Notes under the pieces: model-generated
The model's database searches: none
Told to the model about the DNA's origin: nothing
What the model saw: the letters and a program-made list of their open reading frames with translations, nothing else
Program-made: the position numbers and the translations under genes
Shown here: positions 1-19,943 of the stretch, piece after piece
Position numbering within the stretch: position 1 is the first letter of the stretch
How the letters are laid out: each line of letters begins with the position of its first letter
Assembly (NCBI GenBank): GCA_050949565.1
Contig: JBMNFY010000017.1
Span: forward strand, 800,001-864,000
Length of the DNA stretch: 64,000 nt
Reading direction: 5' to 3'
DNA from: Kiritimatiellia bacterium
GTDB taxonomy: Bacteria > Verrucomicrobiota > Kiritimatiellia > RFP12 > UBA1067

Positions 1-1689
1 GCTATCTGTTCGAGTGAGCCGGTGCCGACCTTATAACTCCAAACAATATCCCAGTACGCATAACCATCCGTAAAAGGTTGTTCTGCGGCATATCCGCTGA
101 TTGTATCGCCCTGCTCCCAGTTTCCTCGGGTTCCTTTCCCTGAAACCCAGACAGCCCCAGGGCCTAACGGACGTGGCGAGTCTTCCCATGAATCATGCGG
201 GTCAAAAGGGTGGTCGGCAAAATAACCGGGTGGCGTCTGGGTTTGCGCCCCACCTTCACAAACTGCAATGTTATAGAAATTAACTGAGTCCGGTTGAAAG
301 TAAACGTCAGCTCCATACGCAACATGGAAAAAAGACTGATTTGGAAACGAAGAGCCAAACGGCCCCGACATATTTTCAAAAAGAATTCCTTGTGGCTGGA
401 TTATATTTAATGTGATTGAATCTAACGTTGTTCCGGCGTCCGTGGTTGCATTAATCACGGCAACCGCGGTGCGATCAGGGGCGGTAAAGGTGATCGTGTC
501 GCCGGTGTATCCGCTGACTTGCCCCCCTCCTTCTGTCACATTCCAAAGCACTCCGCTCAAGCCCTCGGGAACCAGCGAGAGCTTGACCTCCTCCCCGACT
601 CCGATGGTTTTCCGCGCGCGGTTGGGCGGCGAGGTGGCGACGGTCTCGGTGACGATTCTCGGCACGATGATCCTGCCGGTTTCGCCGATGGTGATGTCAA
701 ACTCGTTGCCGTGCCTCTCCTCCGTCAGCAGGCCGTACGAGTCTTCGACGATGAACGCGCCGGTGCCGTACAGTCCCTCGCGCGCGCCCGCCCACCCGCG
801 CCGAGTCGTTGATCAGCGCCTGCCAGTCGTAATCGGGCTTCGGCGTGTCGTCGTACTCCGGGTCGGTGGCGACCCGCCGTAATTTAAAGGTATACGCCTT
901 GCCTTTGACGAGCGCGTACTCTGCGGAGCCCGGCGTGCCGAAGCCGTCGTCGCAGTGGCGCACGACGGCTTTCCCCGTGGCCACTTCGAACACCTCGAAG
1001 TTCCAGCGCTCGGAATTACTGCTGCTCGGGTCGCCCACGGTGAGACTGAGCGTCACGCAGTTGGCCGGGTTGCCCTCGTCGTCCGGGTCGCAGGGACAGG
1101 AGCCGGGGCTGTGCGGCACCTCGTCGCCGTCCCGGACGCCGTCGCCGTCGGTGTCGGGGTTGGTCGGGTCGGTGCAGTAGCGGTATTCGTCGAGCAGTCC
1201 GAGGCCGTCGCCGTCGGCGTCCCAGACGGGCTGTTCGTCGTGGCGCACTCGCAGGGGCTCAGGCCGTACTGCAGTTCCCAGCCGTCGGGCAGCATGTCGC
1301 CGTCGCTGTCCCAGACCAGCGGGTCCAGACACGGCCAAACGGCCTTCAGGGCGACCTCGTCGCCGTCGGTCAGACCGTCGCCGTCGGTGTCCTCCAACAG
1401 CGGATTGGTATTGTGGACGTTCACCTCGTCGCCGTCTTCGAGGCCGTCGTCATCGGTGTCCTCGTTGAACGGATCCGTGCCGTGCTGATATTCCTGAAGG
1501 TTGGTCAGCCCGTCGTCATCCGGGTCGTCCGCCACGCCGTGTATGCCGTCGGTCTGGACCACGCGCGGGTTGAAATCATAGCGCACCTCCCATCCGTCGG
1601 GCAGGCCGTCGCCGTCGGTGTCGGGGTCCAGCGGATTGGTGTTGTGGACGTTGACCTCATCGCCGTCTGAGAGGCCGTCGCCGTCGGTG
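1..1689 (-). pseudogene. Leaderless orphan cassette: DxDGDG repeats plus conserved pre-toxin domain (two frameshifts), then an alternative C-terminal domain of unknown function that runs off the window
   Basis: 661-1689 is near-identical to ~7075-8088 of the 1717-aa gene, with a 1-bp deletion near 1228 and a 4-bp insertion near 795. After GRIIVPRI a manually translated frame (VTETVATSPPNRARKTIGVGEEVKLSL...QPDSVNFYNIAVCE...GYF...) stays open to base 1. No start or signal peptide. Confidence 0.8.
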
Positions 1690-1729
1690 GCGTCATTTTT
1701 GGGGGCTGAGTCGTGCGCCGAATACGAAC

Positions 1730-2812
1730 TCATGCAGGGCCGCGCTTTCTGCGGAGGCCGAACCACAGCGCTAATACGCCGAGAAGTCCCGCGATGGCGG
1801 CGAGCGCATAGAAACTCTTGCGTCCCGTCTCGGTCGATTTTTCTTGCGCGGCGTCGGTAGTGTCTGGAGCATCCGGCGGCGTCTCAAGGGCGATCCGCCC
1901 TTCTTCCGGCAACGGCTGGCTGAAATCGCGTTCTTTCAGCGCGGAGAGGTTAGTGTTGATACTGCTGAGAACTTTTAACTTGCGCATAGCCTCCAGCCGC
2001 GATTCCAATTCTCGCTTTGTCCGTTCCCGCCGTTCTGGGAACGGTTGTGCAAGAGCTCGTTCCAGCAGGGATAGACGTTCTTTGGATTTGGCGTATGTGG
2101 GGCTCATTTCGCAGAGCCAACCGTCTCCGCTACGGAAGACCCAATGTGTCGTTTCGTGGGACAAGCCGACTTGAAGGGCTTCACAAATGGCCAGTTTTTT
2201 CTCAGGAGACGATTCTTTCCAGGCTGTGTTCGCAACAGCGTAGACTCCAGAACGGTCCATATCGCTTGTCATTCGATCTGGACTGACAAGGAAACGCAAT
2301 AGAGCCCCCTTTGCCTCCTCTGCGTCAGCGACATGTAGGTAGGATGAGATAGCGATGACACGTAAAGTACCGCCCTTTGATGTGTCCGACGCCAAATCCA
2401 GAAGGAACGTTTTTGAGGCGACATCTTCACAAGCACCCAACCAGAAAACGGCACCCCTCATCCACCTTTCCGCATTTTTCAGCACTTGCATGTCCTGCGA
2501 TTCTTGGTTTCTTGCTTGTATCGTCGCTTCCGCTTCCCGATAGATATCTATCAACACCGCATGAAACCGTTCATCCGAAATGTTGGTGTCTTTCTTGAAC
2601 CTGACACCTTCGCTCCAGATGGACCAGTCTTCCGTCACCACGTCCACATCATGATCCACCATAAATTCCCGCCTGAGCATAGATTTCAAGTTTTCATCGT
2701 CTGGTGCCGATTCCTGTCGTGCGGTCTGGCCGAGAACTGGCTCCGCGCCATCCAGCGGAGTGACACAGGAAGCCGCAAACAACAGAACTATTCTAAACAA
2801 GATTCGCTTCAT
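1730..2812 (-). CDS. Exported, C-terminally membrane-anchored helical protein; putative immunity protein for the metallopeptidase cassette
   Basis: RBS-like AAAGGAG upstream, N-terminal signal MKRILFRIVLLFAASC, C-terminal TM helix with basic tail LRRKRGPA. Starts 12 bp after the cassette stop. Lower GC than the repeat-coding DNA. Confidence 0.75.
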   Translation of the reverse strand: MKRILFRIVLLFAASCVTPLDGAEPVLGQTARQESAPDDENLKSMLRREFMVDHDVDVVTEDWSIWSEGVRFKKDTNISDERFHAVLIDIYREAEATIQARNQESQDMQVLKNAERWMRGAVFWLGACEDVASKTFLLDLASDTSKGGTLRVIAISSYLHVADAEEAKGALLRFLVSPDRMTSDMDRSGVYAVANTAWKESSPEKKLAICEALQVGLSHETTHWVFRSGDGWLCEMSPTYAKSKERLSLLERALAQPFPERRERTKRELESRLEAMRKLKVLSSINTNLSALKERDFSQPLPEEGRIALETPPDAPDTTDAAQEKSTETGRKSFYALAAIAGLLGVLALWFGLRRKRGPA

Positions 2813-2824
2813 GACACGCTCCTT

Positions 2825-4267
2825 TCAATGTCTGGGTTCCCGGAAACCCATAGCGTCCAGCCCCACGCCGACCGGGTAGGGATCCGGCAGGGCGGGGCCG
2901 GTTCCCGACACGTTGCCGATCGCGATATCCCACTTCTGCGGATTCGCCAAGTAGAACATCAGCAGACGCTGCACCAGTTCGCCATGCGTGAGGCCGGGAT
3001 CATGGTGTCCCGTGCCCTCCCCGCCGCTCCAGTTGGATGATCCGGAGCGGGCTTCGCTCACGGCATCATTGGCGCGATCATAGCGGATATCGCTCATGCC
3101 GCACGCATGCCCGATCTCGTGCGCCAGCGTACTCAGAGGTGCGCCTGATTCTACCGCCAACCCGCGTCGTGGGTCGCCGTACGCAAGATTCATGTCTGAA
3201 TGAATGCCAGCGGCGGACATATAGGTAATGTTATCAACGCAGTACAACTCAAGTCCGCCTGTCAAATTAGTATAAGAGCACATTTGACGGAATTCAGTGG
3301 AGTTTTCAATTACGAACCATTCGTCATGGTCGTGTACATGCTCTATCCCTGCCACATAGAAGCTCATGGCCGCTTGTTTGTAGATGCGGTTGGCTTCGGC
3401 GATCCAAGCGTCGACCGTGTCGGTGCTGACCGCCGCCACACCGTTGGAGTCGCAGATGATGTAGGCATGGATCGGCGTGACGGTCGGCTCCAGCACCCGC
3501 CCGTGGATGTAGGGACAGTCGGTCTCGGGCACGTCGCCGATCCGCACCTCCAGCTTGAAGTCCGATTCCACGGCCCCGCCCCGAATGATCGCCTCGCGCC
3601 CGGTGTTGTGGTTGCTGTAGAAGGTCACGCCGCCGTGGGCGACACTCCAGTGGATGTCCCCGTCCGTGACCGCGTCCTCCGGATCGACCTCGACGCGGTA
3701 CACCGCCAGCCCGCCCGCCGCCACGCCGGAGGGGTTGACGATGACGCCCGCGCCGACCGTGCCGCACGTGATGGGCTCCAGCTTGATCCTCGGCACGATG
3801 ATCCTGCCCTCTTTGCCGACCGTCATGTTGTTGAGTCCACCGTCCGTGTGTTCGGTCAGAAGCTGATCCGGATCTTCGACGATGAACGCGCCAGTATCGT
3901 ACAGTCCCTCGCGCGCGCCCGCCTCGTCCGAGCCGTTGATCAGCGCCTGCCAATCGAAGTCGGGGCCGTAAGAGCCAAGGTTGGTGGCGACCCATTTCAG
4001 GCTGAAGGTGTACGCCTTGCCCTTGACCAGCGCGTACTCTGCGGAGCCGGGCGTGCCGAAGTTTTGGTCGCAGTGGTGGTAGACGGCTTTTCCCGTGGCC
4101 TCCTCGAAGACATCCAGGTTCCAGCGCTCGGAATGGCTTCCGCTCGAGTCGCCCACGGTGAGTTTCAGCGTCACGCAGTTGGTGGAACTCCCGCCGTCCG
4201 AGGCGTCGGTCGGACAGGAACCGGGGCTGTGCGGCACCTCGTCGCCATCCCAGACGCCGTCGCCGTC
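2825..4267 (-). CDS. Leaderless orphan cassette: conserved pre-toxin domain plus Ig-like spacer and zinc metallopeptidase tip (HEIGHACGMSD)
   Basis: Homology to the 1717-aa protein starts abruptly at DGDGVWDGDEVPHSPGSC and ends at GRIIVPRI. The tip has a metzincin-type HExxHxxGxxD motif near 3090-3121. The N-terminal part of the ORF-track call (up to 4486) overlaps the upstream gene and is not credible. Confidence 0.75.
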   Translation of the reverse strand, partial: DGDGVWDGDEVPHSPGSCPTDASDGGSSTNCVTLKLTVGDSSGSHSERWNLDVFEEATGKAVYHHCDQNFGTPGSAEYALVKGKAYTFSLKWVATNLGSYGPDFDWQALINGSDEAGAREGLYDTGAFIVEDPDQLLTEHTDGGLNNMTVGKEGRIIVPRIKLEPITCGTVGAGVIVNPSGVAAGGLAVYRVEVDPEDAVTDGDIHWSVAHGGVTFYSNHNTGREAIIRGGAVESDFKLEVRIGDVPETDCPYIHGRVLEPTVTPIHAYIICDSNGVAAVSTDTVDAWIAEANRIYKQAAMSFYVAGIEHVHDHDEWFVIENSTEFRQMCSYTNLTGGLELYCVDNITYMSAAGIHSDMNLAYGDPRRGLAVESGAPLSTLAHEIGHACGMSDIRYDRANDAVSEARSGSSNWSGGEGTGHHDPGLTHGELVQRLLMFYLANPQKWDIAIGNVSGTGPALPDPYPVGVGLDAMGFREPRH

Positions 4268-4383
4268 CAGGTTGAACGGGTTTTTGTGTGTGTCTCGCAT
4301 CTTTCGAAAAGCTCCACATTCGCGGGCTTTTGCTCTCATCGATATTGCTCCAAGTTTTTTTGAGAAAACCACTCGTGCTGGTA

Positions 4384-5244
4384 CTATTCGAAACGCTCTT
4401 GTGTTTTTCTGCAAAACAACAACAAAAACCCGACACACACAAGGATTGCAATACATCCCAAAAGCACAACCAGCACAAGCCTGCAACTATGTTTTTTCGG
4501 ATGGGTTTGTTCACAAGGGGCTTCGACCAGCGTTTCTTCGGTACGATCAATGATGGAAGGATTGATTGGTCTCGCTTCAGTGACGGATAAAGTTCCTAAT
4601 GTGCCTTGCGAAGCAGATTTCTGGACGATTGGCTTTCGGGGCTGTTTGGAATTGGCTACTTGATCCTCTCGCATCGCCGCCTCGAACTGTTCCAGTTTCC
4701 TGCGGCTCTCACCTGTAAGCAGACGGTCATATTGATCTACTAAGTCTGGCCGATCATGAAATATCTTTCGAGACCGGACCACTATACCTTGAATGTCTGG
4801 TTTGTCATACTCGCGAACAAGGAGCCCAGACAAGCGCCCTTCCGTTGGACTCTGGGCCCATTTAAAGAACTTCCTGTCAATCTTACCAGCTTCCACGGCA
4901 TCTGCCATTGCATTCAAGAACGCGACGAACGTGGCCCTTGTCATTTCCCACGTAGACATGGCGATAATGGCTATTTGGTAGTCATTGGACGTTATCTCAT
5001 CAAGATGCGTAAGGATGAATTCAGACGAAGCCGCCAATTCTTTCTGGAAGGCAACATAGGCCTCTTTTTTCCCAAGGATAAAATAACTGTCGATAAAGCC
5101 CACCCCATCCTCAATGCCCATCCTTCGGGCTTCTGCTTCAAGGCGTTGAACACGTTCTCGATAATAAGCAATACTGTTCGCCTGTATGGCTATGGGGATC
5201 ATGCTTACACTTATCAACGCGAGTAATGGCAGAAACATTTTCAT
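4384..5244 (-). CDS. Exported membrane-anchored protein, paralog of 5403-6236; putative orphan immunity protein
   Basis: Signal peptide and C-terminal TM helix. Shares blocks with 5403-6236 (IDRKFFKWAQSPTEGRL vs LDRKFFMWAQFPPEGGL; YDRLLTGESRRKLE vs YDAMLTGESKKKLE). ATGA overlap with the upstream toxin-tail remnant. Confidence 0.8.
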   Translation of the reverse strand: MKMFLPLLALISVSMIPIAIQANSIAYYRERVQRLEAEARRMGIEDGVGFIDSYFILGKKEAYVAFQKELAASSEFILTHLDEITSNDYQIAIIAMSTWEMTRATFVAFLNAMADAVEAGKIDRKFFKWAQSPTEGRLSGLLVREYDKPDIQGIVVRSRKIFHDRPDLVDQYDRLLTGESRRKLEQFEAAMREDQVANSKQPRKPIVQKSASQGTLGTLSVTEARPINPSIIDRTEETLVEAPCEQTHPKKHSCRLVLVVLLGCIAILVCVGFLLLFCRKTQERFE

Positions 5245-5333
5245 GGCTCATACTTCCTGAATCCTGATGTCCCGTCAAGGAAGAAACGGTACTTCTTGTT
5301 TACTGTTCCGGACACGGAACCTGCACCGATCCC
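5241..5333 (-). pseudogene. 30-codon remnant of a variant NlpC/P60-like toxin C-terminus
   Basis: Manual translation GIGAGSVSGTVNKKYRFFLDGTSGFRKYEP* matches the end of the 1717-aa protein, GIATGSLAGKIHKKYPAFLDGTSGFRKYEP*. Too short for the ORF track. Confidence 0.85.
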
Positions 5334-5402
5334 GTGATCAAGGGCCGGAAGGCAGAGTCGGATCGTGTCGATTTGCAAACGATAGTTCACAGGGCAATCA
5401 CT

Positions 5403-6236
5403 TCAGAGGCTTCGCAAGAACCAGACCGCAAAGGTGACGATAAAAACCAATGCCACGACAAGCAGGAGCCACACAAAGCCCGACCCCCGAATGGGCGTTG
5501 GAACCGGTGGCAATGGAGGCGCTATCTCATTGCTAACGTTGGAGCCGTATGACTCCAGCGATGTCCGCTCGGTTTGCGTGCACATCGAGGCGGCATGGTT
5601 GTTCGCAGGCGATTTTTCGTTGTTTTGATGTCGAATCGTCCGGCCAGAAGATGGAGGAGCCAATCGTGCCTCATAGTCCTCGAGTTTCTTTTTGCTCTCG
5701 CCCGTCAGCATCGCATCGTAGGTAGCGATCTTCTCAGGGACATCCTGAAATATCTTCTTCGCGCGCATTATGACGGTCTGCGCCTTGCTGTCTGCATGAT
5801 GCTTTATCAACACATTACACAGCCCGCCCTCTGGGGGAAATTGCGCCCACATGAAAAACTTCCTGTCAAGAGTCCCGCTTTCGACAAGTTCGGCAACAGT
5901 GTCAAGGAAATCCAAATAGGATGACACAGCCATTCTGCCGGTAGAGATCATAACCATTGCTTTCCCTGACTCGGTTGGCGCCACTTCATCCAAGTGATGA
6001 AGAACAAACGGCCACGCCTCAACCATCTTGTCTTGGAGAGCGACGCATTCCGCTTTGCGATGTATAACGTGGAACACGTCACCAAGCCCCTCGGCATCAC
6101 GCGCCCCAATAGAACGAGCCTGCATCTCGGCACCGGAAACAAGCCCCCGGATGCTTGCGATTTCATTTGAATCGTCAGCCGAGGCAATCATGGTTCCTTT
6201 AAGCGCCAACGCCAAAAGTACTAATGTTAATTTCAT
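5403..6236 (-). CDS. Exported membrane-anchored protein; putative cognate immunity protein of the 1717-aa protein
   Basis: ATGA overlap with the stop of 6233-11386, signal peptide MKLTLVLLALALKGTMIASA, Pro-rich linker, C-terminal TM helix. Confidence 0.8.
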   Translation of the reverse strand: MKLTLVLLALALKGTMIASADDSNEIASIRGLVSGAEMQARSIGARDAEGLGDVFHVIHRKAECVALQDKMVEAWPFVLHHLDEVAPTESGKAMVMISTGRMAVSSYLDFLDTVAELVESGTLDRKFFMWAQFPPEGGLCNVLIKHHADSKAQTVIMRAKKIFQDVPEKIATYDAMLTGESKKKLEDYEARLAPPSSGRTIRHQNNEKSPANNHAASMCTQTERTSLESYGSNVSNEIAPPLPPVPTPIRGSGFVWLLLVVALVFIVTFAVWFLRSL

Positions 6237-9200
6237 GGTTCGTACTTCCTAAACCCCGATGTTCCATCAAGAAAGGCTGGATACTTCTTATGTATCTTCC
6301 CGGCGAGAGAACCAGTGGCAATACCCTGTCCATCGTAGTCCACGATGCCCACATGGCCGGAACCAGCAGGGTTTGGATGGCCGACTATGAATCCGGGTTG
6401 TGGATAGGTTGGGTTCGGAATGAGAATCCAGTGATCAATATCCGTCTGTACACCCGGCGGGAAAATGGGGTGCGTGTCATCTTGGCCTGCCCATTGGTTC
6501 GCTGATGGCGGGTCTCCTCCTAGGTAGCCGCCAATCAAAGGAACCGTCGCTCCTGCTTGCGCAGCTCGATGAGCCACGAAAATGTTGCATTTGTTGGCAC
6601 CTGCAGCAACCTCTGGAAACCCGTACTGAGCGGGAACGACATCAGAAACCTCGTAGTCGGAGTTTCCCAAAAAACCCTTTGCCGCATTCCTGATGTTAAC
6701 TTGCATCTGTGTGTCCGCGACACCGAAGGCATCAGGATCGCCAGCCATTCCATAACCGTTAGCCTCATCACTCGTACGCTCATACACCTTTTCACACGAT
6801 ACAGTTCCTTCGGCACTGAGAACGGCCTTGATTCTGAACACTCCGCTTTGGGTTGTCGTGTGGGTATATGTCTTGCCGCTGGCCGATGTCCCGAAACTAG
6901 TCCAAGCCTCCCACAATCCATCTGCTTTAAGTCTTTGATAATACCACTTTGGTTCTTCGGCAGGTGGCACGTAGGAGTCTGGAAGAATATTTGCCTTCAT
7001 GGTAACGTTGTTTCCCTTCTTCACCACGAGCCCGTCGGGAGGTGCTCCGACCAGCTCAACAGATTCAATCTTCGGCACGATGATCCTGCCGGTTTCGCCG
7101 ATGGTGATGTCAAACTCGTTGCCGTGCCTCTCCTCCGTCAGCAGGCCGTACGAGTCCTCGACGATGAACGCGCCGGTGCCGTAGAGCCCCTCGCGCGCGC
7201 CCGCCCGCGCCGAGTCGTTGATCAGCGCCTGCCAGTCGAAATCGTGCCCCTCATCAAGGTTGGTGCCGATCCACCGCAGGCTGAAGATGTACGCCTTGCC
7301 CTTGACCAGCGCGTACTCCGCGCTGCCCGGCGTGCCGAATCCGTCGTCGCAGTGGCGCACGACATCCCTCCCGGTGATCTCTTCGAACACCTCGAAGTTC
7401 CAGCGCTCGGAATTACTGCTGCTCGGGTCGCCCACGGTGAGACTGAGCGTCACGCAGTTGGCCGGGTTGCCCTCGTCGTCCGGGTCGCAGGGACAGGAGC
7501 CGGGGCTGTGCGGCACCTCGTCGCCGTCCCAGACGCCGTCGCCGTCGGTGTCGGGGTTGGTCGGGTCGGTGCAGTAGCGGTATTCGTCGAGCAGTCCGAG
7601 GCCGTCGCCGTCGGCGTCCCAGGCGGGGCTGTTCGTCGCGGCGCACTCGCAGGGGCTGAGGCCGTACTGCAGTTCCCATCCGTCGGGCAGCATGTCGCCG
7701 TCGCAGTCCCAGACCAGCGGGTCCAGGCACGGCCAAACGGCCTTCAGGGCGACCTCGTCGCCGTCGGTCAGACCATCGCCGTCGGTGTCCTCCAACAGCG
7801 GATTGGTATTGTGGACGTTCACCTCGTCGCCGTCTTCGAGGCCGTCGTCATCGGTGTCTTCGTTGAACGGATCCGTGCCGTGCTGATATTCCTGAAGGTT
7901 GGTCAGCCCGTCGTCATCCGGGTCGTCCGCCGCGCCGTGTGTGCCGTCGGTCTGGACCACGCACGGGTTGAAATCATAGCGCACCTCCCAGCCGTCGGGC
8001 AGGCCGTCGCCGTCGGTGTCGGGATCCAGCGGATTGGTGTTGTGGACGTTGACCTCATCGCCGTCTGAAAGGCCGTCGCCGTCGGTGTCCCGCTTCCGGG
8101 GCTTTGTGCCGCGCTGATATTCCTGAAGGTTGGTCAGCCCGTCGTCATCCGGGTCGCCGTCCGCGCCGTCATCGCCCGACGCGGAAAGCGGGTTCAAGCC
8201 GTTGTCGACCTCCCATCCGTCGGGCAGGCCGTCGCCGTCGGTGTCCTTCAGCAATGGATCGGTGCCGTGGACGTTGACCTCGTCGCCGTCCGAAAGGCCG
8301 TCGCCGTCGGTGTCGGCGTTCAGCGGGTCGGTGAAAGTCTGCGGGCCGCCGACCAGAGCCAGCGAAAAGGTTATGCCGCCCCCCAGATAGCGGACCGTGC
8401 CGTCCGTGAAGGAGCGCCCTTCGGCCTGGCCCGAGCCGTTCGCTCCCCACGCGGCCACCTCTCCCGTCCCCGTGCAGGCGAGCGTGTGGTGGGCGCCCGC
8501 GCCGATCAGGGTGGCCGGCCCGAGACCCGGCGGGACTTGGTTCTGGCCGGATGCGCCGTCGCCCCAGCAGACGACCGCGCCGTCGGCGGTCAGCGCCGCG
8601 GTGTGGTCCCCCGCCGCCGCGACGGTGACGGCGTTTGTCAAGTCCGGCGGCACATCGCACTGGCGGGCGCTGTTCTGACCCCAGCAGACGACCGCGCCGT
8701 CGGCGGTCAGCGCCGCCGTGTGGAAGAAGCCCGCCGCGACGGCGACGGCGTTCGTCAGCCCGGCGGGCACGTCGCACTGATGGACATAGTTCTGACCCCA
8801 GCAGACCACCGTGCCGTCGGCGCGCAGCGCAGCGGTGTGGTAGGCGCCGGCGGTCACGGCCGAAACGTTCGTGGCCGAGTCCGGCGGCGTCAGCACATAA
8901 TGGCCCCCGCCGCCCCAGCAGACGACCGTGCCGTCGGCGCGCAGCGCCACGCTGTGCTCATCGCCGGCGGCGGCGGAAACGATGTTGGTCGCCTGCGGCG
9001 GCGGCGAGCACTGCCCGCGGTTGTTCCTGCCCCAGCAGACGGCCGTGCCGTCCCCCCTCACGGCGACCGTGTGGAAGAACGCTGCGGCGGCCTCCTTCAC
9101 ATTGAGCAGCCAGGCCGGGCGGGGGGCGGCGTCCGCCCCCGCGTACGGCGCGCCCCACTCGACGACGCGGTATCCCGCCGCCTCCAGGCTGTCGGAAAGG

Positions 9201-11386
9201 CCGTCGCCGTCAGAGTCGGGGTTCGCGGGCGAGGTGCCCAGGGCAAGCTCCGCGCCGTCCTCCAGTCCGTCGCCGTCCGTGTCCCGCACGAGCGGCGAGC
9301 CGCCCGACCCGAAATGATAGGCGATCGTCATGCTGTTGGTGATAAAAGGCTGGTCGTATGAGACGGGGAGGTTGATGGCGGCGCCGGGACCCTGCGCGCC
9401 CAGCGTCGCCGACGCGCCGGTGTTGTCCCCCGCAGTGTCGGCGTAGCGGACGCAGACGGTGTTCGTCGCGTCCGCAGGGATGACGACCTGGAACGAGACG
9501 CGGGCAGAAGAGTTCGTGTAGAAGCCCATGTCGCGGTATTCGATCACGCAGTGACGCGCGCCGTCCACCGTCACGTCCGCCACGGTGATCCGCGTGGCGG
9601 GGGCGTCGGGCGTGGCGGTGCGGGCGTAGAGGTTGTCCCAGTGGGCCGCCACGGCGAAATGCCTGAGGGAGAGAGTGAGGGTGCCCGTGAGGGCGCGGTT
9701 GTAGTTTTGGCTTTCGATCCAGCCGTCCACCGGCCTGGACCGGTCGATGAGGTACACGACGCCGTTGATGTCGAGCAGGGCGTTCGTGCAGACCGCGCCG
9801 CCGATGCGGACGGGGAACGGGAGCGCGGCCGGGATCAGGCCTGAGTTCAGGTTGGTGCCGCTGAGGACGGTTGTCCCGCCGGATGCGTCGAACCACGGGA
9901 GCGCCGCGGTCTCCCACCAGGCGGCCTCGATGCCGTCGGGGACGCCGTCGCCGTCGCTGTCGGGGTTGCGCGGGTCGGTGCCGGCGCGGAATTCGGCGAC
10001 GTTGGGCAGGCCGTCACCGTCGGGGTCGCCGTGCGCGTCGGCGGGGTCGAGGGGATCGAAGAGGTTGTCGAGTTCCCACTTGTCGTCCATGCCGTCGCCG
10101 TCGCTGTCGGCAAGGTCGAAGCGCGTCCCGTGCACCCACTTCTCGCTGGCGTCGGTCAGCCCGTCGCCGTCGGTGTCGGCGGCGTCGGCGAGGCGGAAGA
10201 AGCCGGTGTCCGTCAGCCAGACGGCGTTGGTGCAGATGACGTTGGTGTGCGTGACGCCCGGCGCGTAGGCGGACGGCGCGGTGTTCGTGACGCACGCGGG
10301 GGCCGGGGCCTCCGGCGGCGGGGGCAGGTCGGCGCGGGGGATGAGCAGGTCGACCCCGGCATCATCGGGATCAAGCGCGACCCGCCACGGGTTCGTCCAC
10401 GCGGGCGGAACCAGGGTGGGGGTGAAGAAGATGTCCAGCACGCCGCCCGCGAGCGCCGTGCCCGCCGGCCACGCGGCGGAGAGCGCGACGCCGTTCGTAT
10501 CGGATGAAATGCCGGTGAAGACCAGCCCGGTCAGCGCGGCGGGCGAGCGCGACGGCGCGCCGGCCGTGCTCCGCGTCCCCGCCGTCCCGCCGGAGCGGTA
10601 GACGCCGAGATCCTCCCGGAGGAGGAAGGTGAATGCCATCTCGACGTGCGAGGGCAGGAAATACTGCCGCGTGGACAGCCATGCCGAACGGTAAATGATC
10701 CGGTCCGGCGTCCGCATGCGGCGCGAGGGCCGCGCCAGCAAATCTTGATACACCCGCTCGGTGTCGAAGAAGTCTGGAGCCGTGCCATCGACGCTGTGGA
10801 GCCGGGCGATCCAGTCCGCCGACCAGACGCCGGCGTCGGCGGCGACCGACCAGAAAGGTTCGCCGGCCGCGTTGTAAAAGAGCATGTCGCCGCTGAGGTC
10901 GTCCGCGCACAGGAGCGCGCGCCACGCCTCGACGCCGTTGGCTTCCTCCGGCACGAGCCCCGCCAGGAACTCGGCCGGGAACCCCGGGGCCGCGGCGTCC
11001 AGGGGGATGACGCCGCCGTCCAGCCTGACCCGCCGTTCCGGGTCCGGCATGAGCACGCCCGCGCCCCGCGCCAGTTCGCGCTCCAGCTTCAGCGCCATGT
11101 CCAGCGGCGTGGCGGGCGTCCTGTACACGGAAGCGGGGCGGGAGGCGGGCGCGTCCGCCGGTTCCGCGTCTTCCTGCGCCAACGCATGGATCGATGCGAA
11201 AACGAGACCTGCGGACACGCATACCGCCGCGACAAGAAGCACAAGGCCTTTCGAAGCTCTTGCGAACCCCCTCGTGGCATGGGCGTCCCGCCCATGAAAC
11301 ACGGGCAGGATGCCCGTGTCACACTTGTTCACGACGGATTTTGCAAGAGCTTCTTTCTTTTTGTTATTTGTTCCGCCGTTTTCCAT
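6233..11386 (-). CDS. Large secreted multidomain protein (NIDO-like region, RCC1 repeats, DxDGDG/TSP3-like Ca-binding repeats, C-terminal NlpC/P60-CHAP-like domain); putative polymorphic toxin
   Basis: Purine-rich RBS and signal peptide. Many DTDGDGLxDGxE repeats and about six HTAAL..DG.VVCWG RCC1 blades. C-terminal NKCNIFV...GHVGIV Cys/His pair. Visible GC drop after GRIIVPKI (~7070). Confidence 0.85.
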   Translation of the reverse strand: MENGGTNNKKKEALAKSVVNKCDTGILPVFHGRDAHATRGFARASKGLVLLVAAVCVSAGLVFASIHALAQEDAEPADAPASRPASVYRTPATPLDMALKLERELARGAGVLMPDPERRVRLDGGVIPLDAAAPGFPAEFLAGLVPEEANGVEAWRALLCADDLSGDMLFYNAAGEPFWSVAADAGVWSADWIARLHSVDGTAPDFFDTERVYQDLLARPSRRMRTPDRIIYRSAWLSTRQYFLPSHVEMAFTFLLREDLGVYRSGGTAGTRSTAGAPSRSPAALTGLVFTGISSDTNGVALSAAWPAGTALAGGVLDIFFTPTLVPPAWTNPWRVALDPDDAGVDLLIPRADLPPPPEAPAPACVTNTAPSAYAPGVTHTNVICTNAVWLTDTGFFRLADAADTDGDGLTDASEKWVHGTRFDLADSDGDGMDDKWELDNLFDPLDPADAHGDPDGDGLPNVAEFRAGTDPRNPDSDGDGVPDGIEAAWWETAALPWFDASGGTTVLSGTNLNSGLIPAALPFPVRIGGAVCTNALLDINGVVYLIDRSRPVDGWIESQNYNRALTGTLTLSLRHFAVAAHWDNLYARTATPDAPATRITVADVTVDGARHCVIEYRDMGFYTNSSARVSFQVVIPADATNTVCVRYADTAGDNTGASATLGAQGPGAAINLPVSYDQPFITNSMTIAYHFGSGGSPLVRDTDGDGLEDGAELALGTSPANPDSDGDGLSDSLEAAGYRVVEWGAPYAGADAAPRPAWLLNVKEAAAAFFHTVAVRGDGTAVCWGRNNRGQCSPPPQATNIVSAAAGDEHSVALRADGTVVCWGGGGHYVLTPPDSATNVSAVTAGAYHTAALRADGTVVCWGQNYVHQCDVPAGLTNAVAVAAGFFHTAALTADGAVVCWGQNSARQCDVPPDLTNAVTVAAAGDHTAALTADGAVVCWGDGASGQNQVPPGLGPATLIGAGAHHTLACTGTGEVAAWGANGSGQAEGRSFTDGTVRYLGGGITFSLALVGGPQTFTDPLNADTDGDGLSDGDEVNVHGTDPLLKDTDGDGLPDGWEVDNGLNPLSASGDDGADGDPDDDGLTNLQEYQRGTKPRKRDTDGDGLSDGDEVNVHNTNPLDPDTDGDGLPDGWEVRYDFNPCVVQTDGTHGAADDPDDDGLTNLQEYQHGTDPFNEDTDDDGLEDGDEVNVHNTNPLLEDTDGDGLTDGDEVALKAVWPCLDPLVWDCDGDMLPDGWELQYGLSPCECAATNSPAWDADGDGLGLLDEYRYCTDPTNPDTDGDGVWDGDEVPHSPGSCPCDPDDEGNPANCVTLSLTVGDPSSSNSERWNFEVFEEITGRDVVRHCDDGFGTPGSAEYALVKGKAYIFSLRWIGTNLDEGHDFDWQALINDSARAGAREGLYGTGAFIVEDSYGLLTEERHGNEFDITIGETGRIIVPKIESVELVGAPPDGLVVKKGNNVTMKANILPDSYVPPAEEPKWYYQRLKADGLWEAWTSFGTSASGKTYTHTTTQSGVFRIKAVLSAEGTVSCEKVYERTSDEANGYGMAGDPDAFGVADTQMQVNIRNAAKGFLGNSDYEVSDVVPAQYGFPEVAAGANKCNIFVAHRAAQAGATVPLIGGYLGGDPPSANQWAGQDDTHPIFPPGVQTDIDHWILIPNPTYPQPGFIVGHPNPAGSGHVGIVDYDGQGIATGSLAGKIHKKYPAFLDGTSGFRKYEP
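11254..11352 (-). repeat. 99-bp palindromic MITE/REP-like element, in-frame within the signal-peptide region of the 1717-aa gene
   Basis: Terminal inverted repeats AAGCTCTTGCGAA / TTTGCAAGAGCTT and internal stems CATGGGCGTCCCGCCCATG and CACGGGCAGGATGCCCGTG. A homologous copy lies at 32370-32468. Confidence 0.85.
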
Positions 11387-11773
11387 TGCCGTCCCTTTCC
11401 CTCACGTAAAAGGCGCGAACCCCGCTCCGTGCCTCACAAGAGGGACCGCTAAGACCCTAGGAGAAGCCCGGACACGAGGTCGCGCCCGATCGGGCGCGTC
11501 CCCGTGCATCCACTTCTCCTTGTGAAAATTAGCGGTTTTCTTGTGAAGCGTTCTGCGCGAAAGCGCAACAATCAAATCAGTCTATGGGATTCGGTTCTCT
11601 TCTCGTTCTCCGGTTCTCTCTTGCTGCCCGCCGGGCAGTCCTCGTTTGCGTTCGGCCGCGCCCGCCCTCGTCCGGGACAGGCAACGCCGCACTCCAGCAT
11701 CGAATCTACTTTACACCCGTTGGCAGACAGAACGCAAGGTTGATTTTCAGGCTGATTTTGGACCGCGGTTTCG

Positions 11774-18492: not shown

Positions 18493-19943
18493 AAAGGACT
18501 TTCCCCAAAAAATCGGGGGTAATTATATCTAAGTCCTTGAAAACAAAGGGGATGCGTCTCTGACGGGCGTGCCTGAAAGTGAAAAAGTGGTTTTCCTCCG
18601 CCGGTTCTGCCAAAATGGCGGTTCAACCAAAAACCAAAAACCGGAAAGGAAAACCGACGTGAATCATAGCGCAACGGCGTTCAAAGCGCGAGAGCAACTC
18701 AAGAATTTTTTGGGGGAACTTTCCCCCCGGTTTTCCAAGCCGCTCGGCAAGTTCGTGGGCGACATGGTCTACGGGATACAGGCGTCGCAGGACGTGAAGC
18801 TCAGCCGGATCGCCCGCGCGCTCGACGAGCCGATATCGATGAAGAAACTGGAGGACAGGCTGAGCCGGATGCTCGGGAGCGAGGGCATCGAGCAGGGGAT
18901 TTCCGACGCTGTCGCCCGTCTGGGCTCGCGTCACGTCCATCAGGACACGCTGATCGTCATCGACCCGACCGACATCCGTAAGCTGTACGCGAAGAAGATG
19001 GAATATCTCGCCCGCGTCCGGGACGGGAGCACGGGGGAGATCGGCAACGGATACAGCGCCTGCCTGGCGGTCGCCTGCGAGAGCGGCGGCCGCCGGATCA
19101 CGCCGTTGCACATGCGGCTGTGGTCGAGCGAGGCGGAGGGCTTCATCAGCCAGAACGACGAGGTGCTCGGCGTCATCGACCAGATCAGCTCCCGCGCGAA
19201 GAAGCGCGGCATCTACGTCATCGGCCGCGGAGGCGACGGAGACTGGCTGTTCGACGGCCTGGACCGGCGCAAACTGGACTACATCGTGCGCCTCGTGGGC
19301 AACCGCAACCTGCTCCACGGCCGGCGGACCGCGCTGGCCGAAGAACTGGCGGCATCCTGCCCCATGAAGCACATCGAGATCGTCACGAGGGAGACGGGGG
19401 ACGGGGTGAAAAGCTATAAGCTGGAGTTCGGCGCCATGACCGTCGCCCTGCCGCAGAGGCCCGACAAGCCCCTGCGCATGGTCGTGGTGAAGGGGTTCGG
19501 CGAGCGGCCGATGCTCCTGCTGACCACGCTGGCCGGGACGACGTCGCGCAAGTCCCTGTGGCAGGTCGTCGAGGGCTATCTGACGCGGTGGCGCGTCGAG
19601 GACGCGATCCGCTTCGTCAAGCAGAGCTACAACCTCGAGGACGTCCGGGTCCTGACGTACCGGCGCCTGAAAAACATGGTCGCTCTGCTGCTGGCCGTCA
19701 TCTACTTCAACTGCGTCTGGCTGGCCGGACGGCTGCGCTGCGAGATCCTGACGACCAACATCACCCACTCCGCCAAGCGCATCTACGGCGTGGCCGAGTT
19801 CCTCCACTACGCCGTCGCCGACGGCCTCGGGAGGCTCTTCACGCGCCACGGGAAATGGTACGGCTACAAGCCGCCAGACCCCGAATCAAACCCGCTCGGA
19901 CTGGTCTTTCTGGAATGACCAGATTTTTTGGGGAAACTCCTTG
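18493..19943 (+). mobile_element. IS4-family insertion sequence, copy 1 (~1451 bp)
   Basis: Terminal inverted repeats AAAGGACTTTCCCCAAAAAATC / GATTTTTTGGGGAAACTCCTTG. Near-identical copy at 40323-41773. Confidence 0.92.
18659..19918 (+). CDS. IS4-family DDE transposase (second catalytic Asp replaced by Gly)
   Basis: IVIDPTD, VIGRGG (DRG in copy 2) and the YREK-type signature YLTRWRVEDAIRFVKQ. GTG start after AAGGA. Confidence 0.88.
   Translation: MNHSATAFKAREQLKNFLGELSPRFSKPLGKFVGDMVYGIQASQDVKLSRIARALDEPISMKKLEDRLSRMLGSEGIEQGISDAVARLGSRHVHQDTLIVIDPTDIRKLYAKKMEYLARVRDGSTGEIGNGYSACLAVACESGGRRITPLHMRLWSSEAEGFISQNDEVLGVIDQISSRAKKRGIYVIGRGGDGDWLFDGLDRRKLDYIVRLVGNRNLLHGRRTALAEELAASCPMKHIEIVTRETGDGVKSYKLEFGAMTVALPQRPDKPLRMVVVKGFGERPMLLLTTLAGTTSRKSLWQVVEGYLTRWRVEDAIRFVKQSYNLEDVRVLTYRRLKNMVALLLAVIYFNCVWLAGRLRCEILTTNITHSAKRIYGVAEFLHYAVADGLGRLFTRHGKWYGYKPPDPESNPLGLVFLE

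Follow-up and report, generated by a model that had tools for sequence, protein, structure and literature searches.

In Rhs systems, a large conserved protein carries, beyond a fixed demarcation, a C-terminal toxin that varies; the immunity gene is directly downstream, and orphan tip-immunity cassettes with a shared homology tract are present. In CdiA proteins the junction is marked by the motif VENN, while MafB proteins carry a Sec signal peptide and are encoded without a dedicated secretion system beside them but with alternative C-terminal cassettes downstream. Recombination of polymorphic toxins with standalone cassettes is described in the abstract of PMC3482391. Here we analyzed a 64,000-nucleotide stretch of DNA from a Kiritimatiellia bacterium (assembly GCA_050949565.1, contig JBMNFY010000017.1, positions 800,001 to 864,000; hereafter the window, G000:C17:800001-864000, where G000 is the window's genome, 92% complete). 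At its start lies a locus in which one gene for a large, repeat-rich protein is followed by an alternating series of C-terminal ends (tips) and separate small genes (partners). An earlier interpretation made from the letters alone (the sequence-only reading) had proposed that this is a new polymorphic toxin system. Our analysis supports this proposal: we assign a probability of roughly 0.7 to the locus being a polymorphic toxin-immunity system whose scaffold and pre-toxin domain are undescribed and which is widespread in the Planctomycetes-Verrucomicrobia-Chlamydiae (PVC) group. The evidence consists of tips that vary across the whole protein family, orphan arrays that recur in other genomes, partners that co-occur with particular tips, a model of a tip-partner complex, and a chimeric homologue, P0003.

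The whole locus is encoded on the minus strand, and all elements were found at the coordinates where they had first been noted, including the 1717-residue secreted gene and the tip and partner series that follows it on the same strand. Its features are as follows.

6233-11386, minus strand: main gene, an open reading frame (ORF) of 1717 residues with a signal-like hydrophobic N-terminus.
10187-11119, minus strand: N-terminal domain (residues 90-400) without known family, from the Pfam scan and homologue comparison.
8426-9106, minus strand: RCC1-like beta-propeller (residues 761-987; Pfam), the central module that varies among homologues.
7517-8335, minus strand: second block of thrombospondin type 3 (TSP3; DxDxDG) repeats (residues 1018-1290), a portion of the tract homologous to cassette 3.
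7067-7534, minus strand: pre-tip domain (residues 1285-1440), with the core motif VGDPSxSxSERW and ending in GRIIVPKI, with the tip junction at 7066/7067.
6236-7066, minus strand: tip 1 (277 residues; residues 1441-1717 of the main protein), an Ig-like part followed by a putative papain-like Cys/His amidase.
5403-6236, minus strand: partner 1 (277 residues), candidate immunity protein with a signal peptide, a conserved domain of ~170 residues, a linker and a C-terminal membrane helix.
About 5241-5340, minus strand: remnant of a tip-1-like 3' end, 31 codons, 68% identical to the end of tip 1.
4384-5244, minus strand: partner 1' (286 residues), a paralogue of partner 1.
3785-4263, minus strand: cassette 2 copy of the pre-tip domain, without a signal peptide, with 71% protein and 67-90% DNA identity to the main gene.
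2825-3784, minus strand: tip 2 (319 residues), a putative zinc metallopeptidase with the motif HEIGHACGMSD and a weak Reprolysin_3 match.
1730-2812, minus strand: partner 2 (360 residues), with a signal peptide and a C-terminal membrane helix.
660-1694, minus strand: scaffold-like part of cassette 3 (TSP3 repeats and pre-tip domain), 93-100% identical in DNA to the main gene except for a divergent patch.
1-659, minus strand: tip 3, function without assignment, extending 45 codons past the window start, to G000:C17:799865.

This layout is real and not an assembly artefact, a concern attached to the original proposal, because contig L008 from an independent public assembly matches it at 100% identity and with equal spacing from tip 1 through partner 1, the remnant and partner 1' into the start of cassette 2, and because at least half of the sampled words were present in 14 runs from bioreactor, digester, landfill and wastewater metagenomes. 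Tips and partners have a GC content of 0.47-0.55 versus 0.63-0.75 in the scaffold, in agreement with the difference seen by the sequence-only reading. The variant tail of about 30 residues with a paralogous partner behind it, also described there, corresponds to the 31-codon remnant, whose stop codon overlaps the start of partner 1'; the latter is 39% identical to partner 1 over 190 residues (E 1e-46).

Central to our interpretation is the 156-residue pre-tip domain, for which there is no Pfam or NCBIfam model. It has the invariant core VGDPSxSxSE[RKQ]W and ends in GRIIVP[KR]I, the motif at which the three longer tips had been reported to diverge. DNA identity indeed collapses at this point, namely at 7072 in the main gene, 3790 in cassette 2 and 660 in cassette 3. 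A profile of the domain, an approach already suggested by the sequence-only reading, was searched against 1.84 billion representative proteins and matched 902 clusters (counted at 50% identity) at E<=1e-3, 629 at E<=1e-10 and 83 at E<=1e-30. Architectures were counted in 163 domain-bearing proteins, taken from the best 150 profile matches together with earlier matches. The domain was present as a single copy in all 163; its end was complete in 136, and 118 of these continued for at least 150 residues beyond it. In 32 of the 163 proteins the domain began within the first 40 residues, as expected of orphan cassettes or fragments. Across the junction, ungapped pairwise identity among 65 proteins dropped from 0.49 over the 10 residues that precede it to 0.12 over the next 10 and ~0.07 beyond. 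The 117 tips compared formed 42 clusters when at least 50% cover was demanded, or 35 when any BLAST match was accepted, and pairs with 60-79% identity in the pre-tip domain had tip similarity of any kind in 50 of 348 cases. A hypervariable C-terminus behind a fixed junction is a property of the family.

The 41 loci retrieved from species-representative genomes were nearly all labelled Kiritimatiellia, Lentisphaerae, Verrucomicrobia or Planctomycetota, with Akkermansia, Prosthecobacter and Opitutales among the Verrucomicrobia and Pirellulales and Phycisphaerae among the Planctomycetota. The distribution within the window's phylum was patchy: the domain occurred in 21 of 301 sampled genomes, among them 5 of the 12 from the window's own family and 8 of the 15 from another family. 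Three contigs with pre-tip matches of 100%, 64% and 82% protein identity (L008, L016 and L021) were binned as Planctomycetota, Bacteroidales and Actinomycetales, respectively; these odd labels are probably binning errors rather than transfers. In a Lentisphaerae locus (L012), an ORF of 143 residues at 3941-4372, located 3' of a tip and its partner, appeared by eye to be of a very distant pre-tip type and ends ...YWYCWEAQVGG.

An AlphaFold2 model of the pre-tip domain, built on an 18-row alignment, was a confident beta-sandwich (predicted local distance difference test, pLDDT, 87; predicted template modelling score, pTM, 0.83). Foldseek gave no match to it at E<=0.001, and the best VIA match, with a Z score of 4.5, was to generic Ig/PPC-like sandwiches, which is no demonstration of a new fold. 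Sequence searches of solved structures with the pre-tip profile returned chance-level rows only.

Downstream orphan cassettes that combine partners with a tract of homology to the main gene were also found, as in described polymorphic toxin loci. The DNA of cassette 3 is 93-100% identical to main-gene positions 8090-7072, apart from a divergent patch at main 7372-7207 (68-87%), while cassette 2 is 67-90% identical to main 7542-7072. The third cassette of the sequence-only reading is present and has the same junction, but its scaffold-like part is frame-shifted by two indels, a 1-nucleotide (nt) deletion near 1231 and a 4-nt insertion near 795, and is out of frame with tip 3. Given that a 135-nt block beside the junction, 98% identical to the main gene, lies 3' of both frameshifts, a crossover within this block would give an in-frame product.

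The frameshifted cassette 3, the lack of a signal peptide in cassette 2 and the reduction of one tip to a 31-codon remnant could also be taken to indicate that the downstream cassettes are inert debris of old duplications, without a role in exchange or protection. We consider this very improbable. The cassettes retain intact ORFs for tips and partners, and blocks of cassette 3 are 98-100% identical in DNA to the main gene up to the junction, suggesting ongoing gene conversion. Moreover, a sister scaffold from another source, P0003, bears a cassette-2-type module, and other genomes have the same kind of layout. Over approximately its first 1000 residues, P0003 is 92-100% identical to the main protein (P0001), and the identity is 94% at residues 1200-1299 but only 67% from the pre-tip core on; compared with cassette 2, it is 86-94% identical through the pre-tip domain and the first half of the tip, and 50-66% identical in the catalytic half. 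Judged by these identities, P0003 is a natural chimera of the same scaffold with a cassette-2-type module. In two RNA libraries, contigs free of differences extend over partner 2 and the 3' portion of tip 2, which is a weak hint of transcription of this pair, given that DNA was possibly present in the RNA libraries.

These RNA libraries were among the four runs, all of contigs, that were placed on the locus. Tip 1, partner 1 and partner 1' had no contig cover in the two RNA-library runs and low depth in the DNA runs; one possible reading of this contig coverage is that the dominant strain of those samples is without the segment from tip 1 to partner 1'. Contig joints were considered as candidate tip swaps and rejected, as most had a shorter side of fewer than 30 letters and lay within or between repeat-rich scaffold regions.

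Recurrence in other genomes takes several forms. Tip-3-type tips were found elsewhere as expressed ends or as cassettes (P0004, L009, L011 and L013); the tip immediately follows a pre-tip domain in P0004, L011 and L013, and in the case of P0004 it forms the C-terminus of a full-length protein. A locus of another Kiritimatiellia genome, L009, has an array with four pre-tip copies, and L017 and L024 have two each. The L009 array consists of a tip-3-type end with a 240-residue partner, an identical unit with a full pre-tip copy, a third cassette comprising a variant tip and two partner genes, and a truncated pre-tip remnant. Within L009 1-7300, a 2010-nt unit (cassette and 240-residue partner) is repeated exactly, which could be a tandem duplication or an assembly effect. 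The window's genome itself holds a second locus with the same logic as the main locus, on contig C10 (L007 868-9246, minus strand). There, a protein of 1461 residues, which combines a distant pre-tip domain with a tip of the DUF900 alpha/beta-hydrolase family (26.2 bits, cut-off 20.5), is followed by a 383-residue partner, a 535-residue orphan tip and a 387-residue partner, and the homology between main gene and orphan starts inside the N-terminal linker of the tip, not in the pre-tip domain.

The partners form the second half of the proposed system. Partners 1, 1' and 2 each have an N-terminal signal peptide and a C-terminal membrane helix, and the family of partner 1 comprises six clusters with one shared topology. 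Lipase-type tips, present at 8 of the 41 loci, co-occur with one partner family: a gene homologous to the C10 partner lies immediately 3' in 7 of these 8 (the match in L020 being weak, and L033 having none) and in 0 of the 33 other loci. In L028, at 6901-10179, three tandem paralogues of this partner stand behind one lipase tip and resemble a small immunity-gene array.

In a modelled complex, residues 100-277 of tip 1 and residues 22-195 of partner 1 scored 0.80, 0.63 and 0.70 in three runs (median 0.70), compared with 0.01 for the best control; in the calibration sets, 58 of 80 solved complexes but only 2 of 110 mismatched pairs attained the pass mark. At least 79% of contacts were common to the three runs, with a partner pLDDT of at least 90, and the modelled interface includes tip residues 151-157, which flank Cys160, and 234-238, which include His238. 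The model supports binding of partner 1 over the putative active site of tip 1.

Tip 1 had been described as amidase-like, an assignment that we retain as putative. Cys160 and His238 (tip numbering) are invariant in 5 of 5 members of the tip-1 family, and a CHAP match lies below threshold (E 0.0035, 18.2 bits versus a Pfam cut-off of 26); the call draws on this residue pair and this match. The three other members of the family had no Pfam match, and the protein Atlas gave weak CHAP/NlpC-P60 leads only (0.89-0.91). Tip 2 has an HExxHxxGxxD motif and a Reprolysin_3 match of 18.5 bits, below the cut-off of 22.4. Sequence searches of solved structures with tip 1, tip 2 and a tip-1 profile yielded chance-level rows only. 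Elsewhere in the family, tips matched Pfam families above cut-off, namely Amidase_3 (P0162, 58.4 bits), PAD (P0052, 90.2 bits) and the DUF900 alpha/beta hydrolase of the C10 tip; a DUF6973 lies within the tip of P0048, and a GDSL lipase match in the tip of P0149 was below cut-off. Among 30 tip-group representatives scanned singly, 25 had no Pfam family outside TSP3 repeats at E<=0.001. The tips with a Pfam assignment are, as far as family membership indicates, of cell-envelope-attacking or -modifying types.

Given that some tips (PAD, lipases) could act on non-bacterial substrates, the family could instead be one of diversifying exoenzymes and adhesins, secreted or at the surface, that serve in substrate breakdown, predation or host interaction and not in antagonism among related bacteria, with the downstream genes encoding inhibitors or chaperones whose role is to prevent enzyme activity during export. 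The central modules are lectin- or adhesin-like (RCC1, beta-helix, LamG, Big_2), an ORF behind tip 3 has an F5/8-type-C sugar-binding domain, and the organism's habitat is polymer-degrading digester communities, all of which would fit this alternative. However, toxin-immunity systems, and not nutrient enzymes, are typified by silent promoterless cassettes with a recombination tract, displaced tip remnants and a membrane-tethered partner for each tip. The family also includes peptidoglycan amidase tips, and partner 1 is modelled over catalytic residues, so that we regard exoenzymes or adhesins as an unlikely explanation of the locus.

Several results nevertheless weigh against a toxin-immunity system. 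The enzyme assignments of tips 1 and 2 are both below Pfam cut-offs, AlphaFold gave a poor model of tip 1 from a 5-row alignment (pLDDT 40), unfit for a fold search, and the Pfam scan provided no function for tip 3. PAD-type and some other tips are not classic antibacterial activities. The complex model was built on shallow alignments (4 and 7 rows), and its calibration is only rough. Tip 3 is followed on its 3' side by a 238-residue signal-peptide protein with the F5/8-type-C domain, by a 139-residue secreted-looking ORF and then by housekeeping genes; these downstream genes are unlike the partner families behind the tip-3-type tips of L009, L011 and L013, and those partner families were not found in the window's genome with the queries used. 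No secretion or delivery genes were present among the locus flanks, and no recombination event was seen directly in the four contig runs.

The sequence-only reading had named the scaffold after RCC1 and DxDGDG repeats. Both repeat types are present in P0001, with TSP3_bac matching at E 4.3e-52 (173.9 bits, cut-off 25) in 8 stretches and RCC1_2 at E 1.3e-47 (158.8 bits, cut-off 22) in 6 stretches, but RCC1 does not define the scaffold. The central modules of the 20 closest homologues are RCC1 in 11, beta-helix in 3, LamG in 1 and TSP3 only in 5; given that RCC1 occurs in only 11 of these 20, the constant parts are the TSP3 repeats and the pre-tip domain. The main protein is arranged as signal peptide, N-terminal domain, TSP3 repeats, middle domain, RCC1 propeller, TSP3 repeats, pre-tip domain and tip 1, with the signal-peptide-like segment (RGFARASKGLVLLVAAVCVSAGLVFASIHALA/QED) placed behind ~45 N-terminal residues. 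All or part of its N-terminal domain (residues 90-400) is also present in 15 of 41 long members of the family, and a protein Atlas search with it gave no named family. NCBIfam matches of P0001 (CglD, MtsD, Amuc_1099) were all below cut-off and reflect the TSP3 repeats.

One further feature overlaps the 5' end of the main gene.

11252-11346, minus strand: palindromic interspersed repeat of 95 nt, within the 5' end of the ORF and outside the toxin system.

This element has terminal inverted repeats and a stable fold (-44 kcal/mol, z -3.9), and at least 41 matches to it at 85-94% identity occur in the genome (40 of 205 candidates scored); no Rfam family matched it. Read depth in the bin that holds it (11224-11600) was far above the rest of the stretch in all four metagenome runs. 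Because of this element the start codon of the main gene is uncertain and could be the ATG at 11386 or an in-frame GTG within or after the element. The upstream neighbours of the main gene are a uracil-DNA glycosylase gene and an epimerase gene, and a DDE transposase ORF (DDE_Tnp_1, E 4.3e-07) is located at 18569-19918 on the plus strand, ~7 kb upstream of the locus. A scan for promoters and terminators was at chance level, with 5 promoters versus 2.2 +/- 1.7 expected and 8 terminators versus 11.2 expected, and a PADLOC scan gave no matches. Five secretins above cut-off are encoded in the window's genome.

For toxicity, immunity, target and export route, we infer the following scenario. The main gene would give rise to a large protein that is exported by Sec and displayed or released, with calcium-binding TSP3 repeats. 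Tip 1, most likely a CHAP/NlpC-P60-like papain-type amidase, would attack the cell wall of neighbouring bacteria, while other tips would attack their envelope as peptidases or lipases. Partner 1 would also be exported, would remain tethered to the inner membrane via its C-terminal helix, and, according to the complex model, could shield the periplasm of the producer by covering the catalytic cleft of the tip. The remnant with partner 1', cassette 2 with partner 2, and cassette 3 would represent unexpressed spare tips with their protector genes, which may extend immunity and also serve as donors. Recombination via the pre-tip/TSP3 homology (~490 to 1020 nt) could then swap the expressed tip together with its partner.

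The claim that no described toxin class uses this scaffold agrees with our literature search, in which publications on polymorphic toxins in combination with Kiritimatiell*, PVC phyla, RCC1 or thrombospondin/TSP3 contained no description of such a class, subscription journals being outside the coverage. The sole occurrence of 'RCC1' in the available text of PMC3482391 is a virus strain name, and 'TSP' is absent from that text; the accessible part of PMC3417536 mentions thrombospondin only as eukaryotic TSP1, and that of PMC12057145 mentions a TSP3 domain in another giant protein. Digesters, guts, soils and oceans commonly harbour Kiritimatiellia, Lentisphaerae, Verrucomicrobia and Planctomycetes; the competition systems of these groups have hardly been studied. 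The pre-tip domain would be a simple marker for finding such loci in any genome and would lead to dozens of candidate new toxin and immunity families, and the locus described here provides three tip-partner pairs ready for testing. How a repeat protein exported by Sec could bring enzymes into the envelope of a neighbour is a further question that it poses. More tentatively, and at slightly less than even odds in our estimation, these loci may constitute a PVC-wide, Sec-dependent delivery class that is independent of type V, type VI and type VII secretion, has its own route for envelope-attacking tips and holds a large reservoir of so far undescribed domains for toxicity and immunity.

As the sequence-only reading had recognized, the locus follows the same logic as Rhs, CdiA and MafB loci with orphan modules, and this likeness could mean that it is a divergent member of a described class, be it Rhs/YD, CdiA two-partner secretion, MafB, LXG/type VII secretion or cargo effectors of the type VI secretion system (T6SS). 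A distant fragment, P0123 (422 residues), carries DUF6531, an Rhs-associated domain usually found at the start of Rhs proteins, at residues 240-321, behind its pre-tip domain, and hints at hybrids of the pre-tip scaffold with Rhs-type shells. However, Pfam and NCBIfam detected no Rhs, haemagglutinin, PAAR/VgrG or LXG family in the main protein, consistent with the lack of such hallmarks reported earlier, and a search of the 92%-complete genome for the gene of the T6SS sheath protein TssC (VipB) found nothing. No solved structure matches the pre-tip domain in sequence, and its best structural matches are generic beta-sandwiches (Z <=4.5). Membership in any of these classes is accordingly the least probable of the explanations that we weighed, and highly unlikely in itself; the defining features of Rhs/YD proteins, of CdiA with its two-partner secretion (TPS) and of T6SS effectors were not detected for this locus.

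Compared with MafB/MafI of Neisseria, the locus shares a Sec signal peptide, the absence of a co-encoded secretion system and downstream alternative cassettes, but no MafB N-terminal domain was detected, the protein is far larger and repeat-rich, and the taxa belong to the PVC group. With Rhs/YD loci it has in common a conserved protein, a variable tip, a downstream partner and orphan tip-partner cassettes that share a homology tract. In contrast to these loci, the main protein is without YD/RHS repeats, a DPxGL-type motif or a link to PAAR/VgrG (Pfam, NCBIfam), and the demarcation is the end of a beta-sandwich domain, GRIIVP[KR]. Downstream orphan toxin-immunity pairs, a sharp junction motif and presumed tip exchange between strains are reminiscent of CdiA/CdiB/CdiI, whereas the main protein has no TPS domain or haemagglutinin repeats (Pfam), no CdiB-like gene lies nearby, and the partners are exported and membrane-tethered, fitting periplasm-acting tips rather than cytoplasmic nucleases. 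Finally, the predicted papain-like amidase, muramoyl-alanine amidase and alpha/beta-hydrolase lipase activities, as well as the export of the immunity proteins, recall the Tae/Tai and Tle/Tli pairs of the T6SS; unlike those effectors, which are separate cargo, the predicted activities of the toxin-immunity system proposed here are C-terminal tips of a Sec-exported scaffold.

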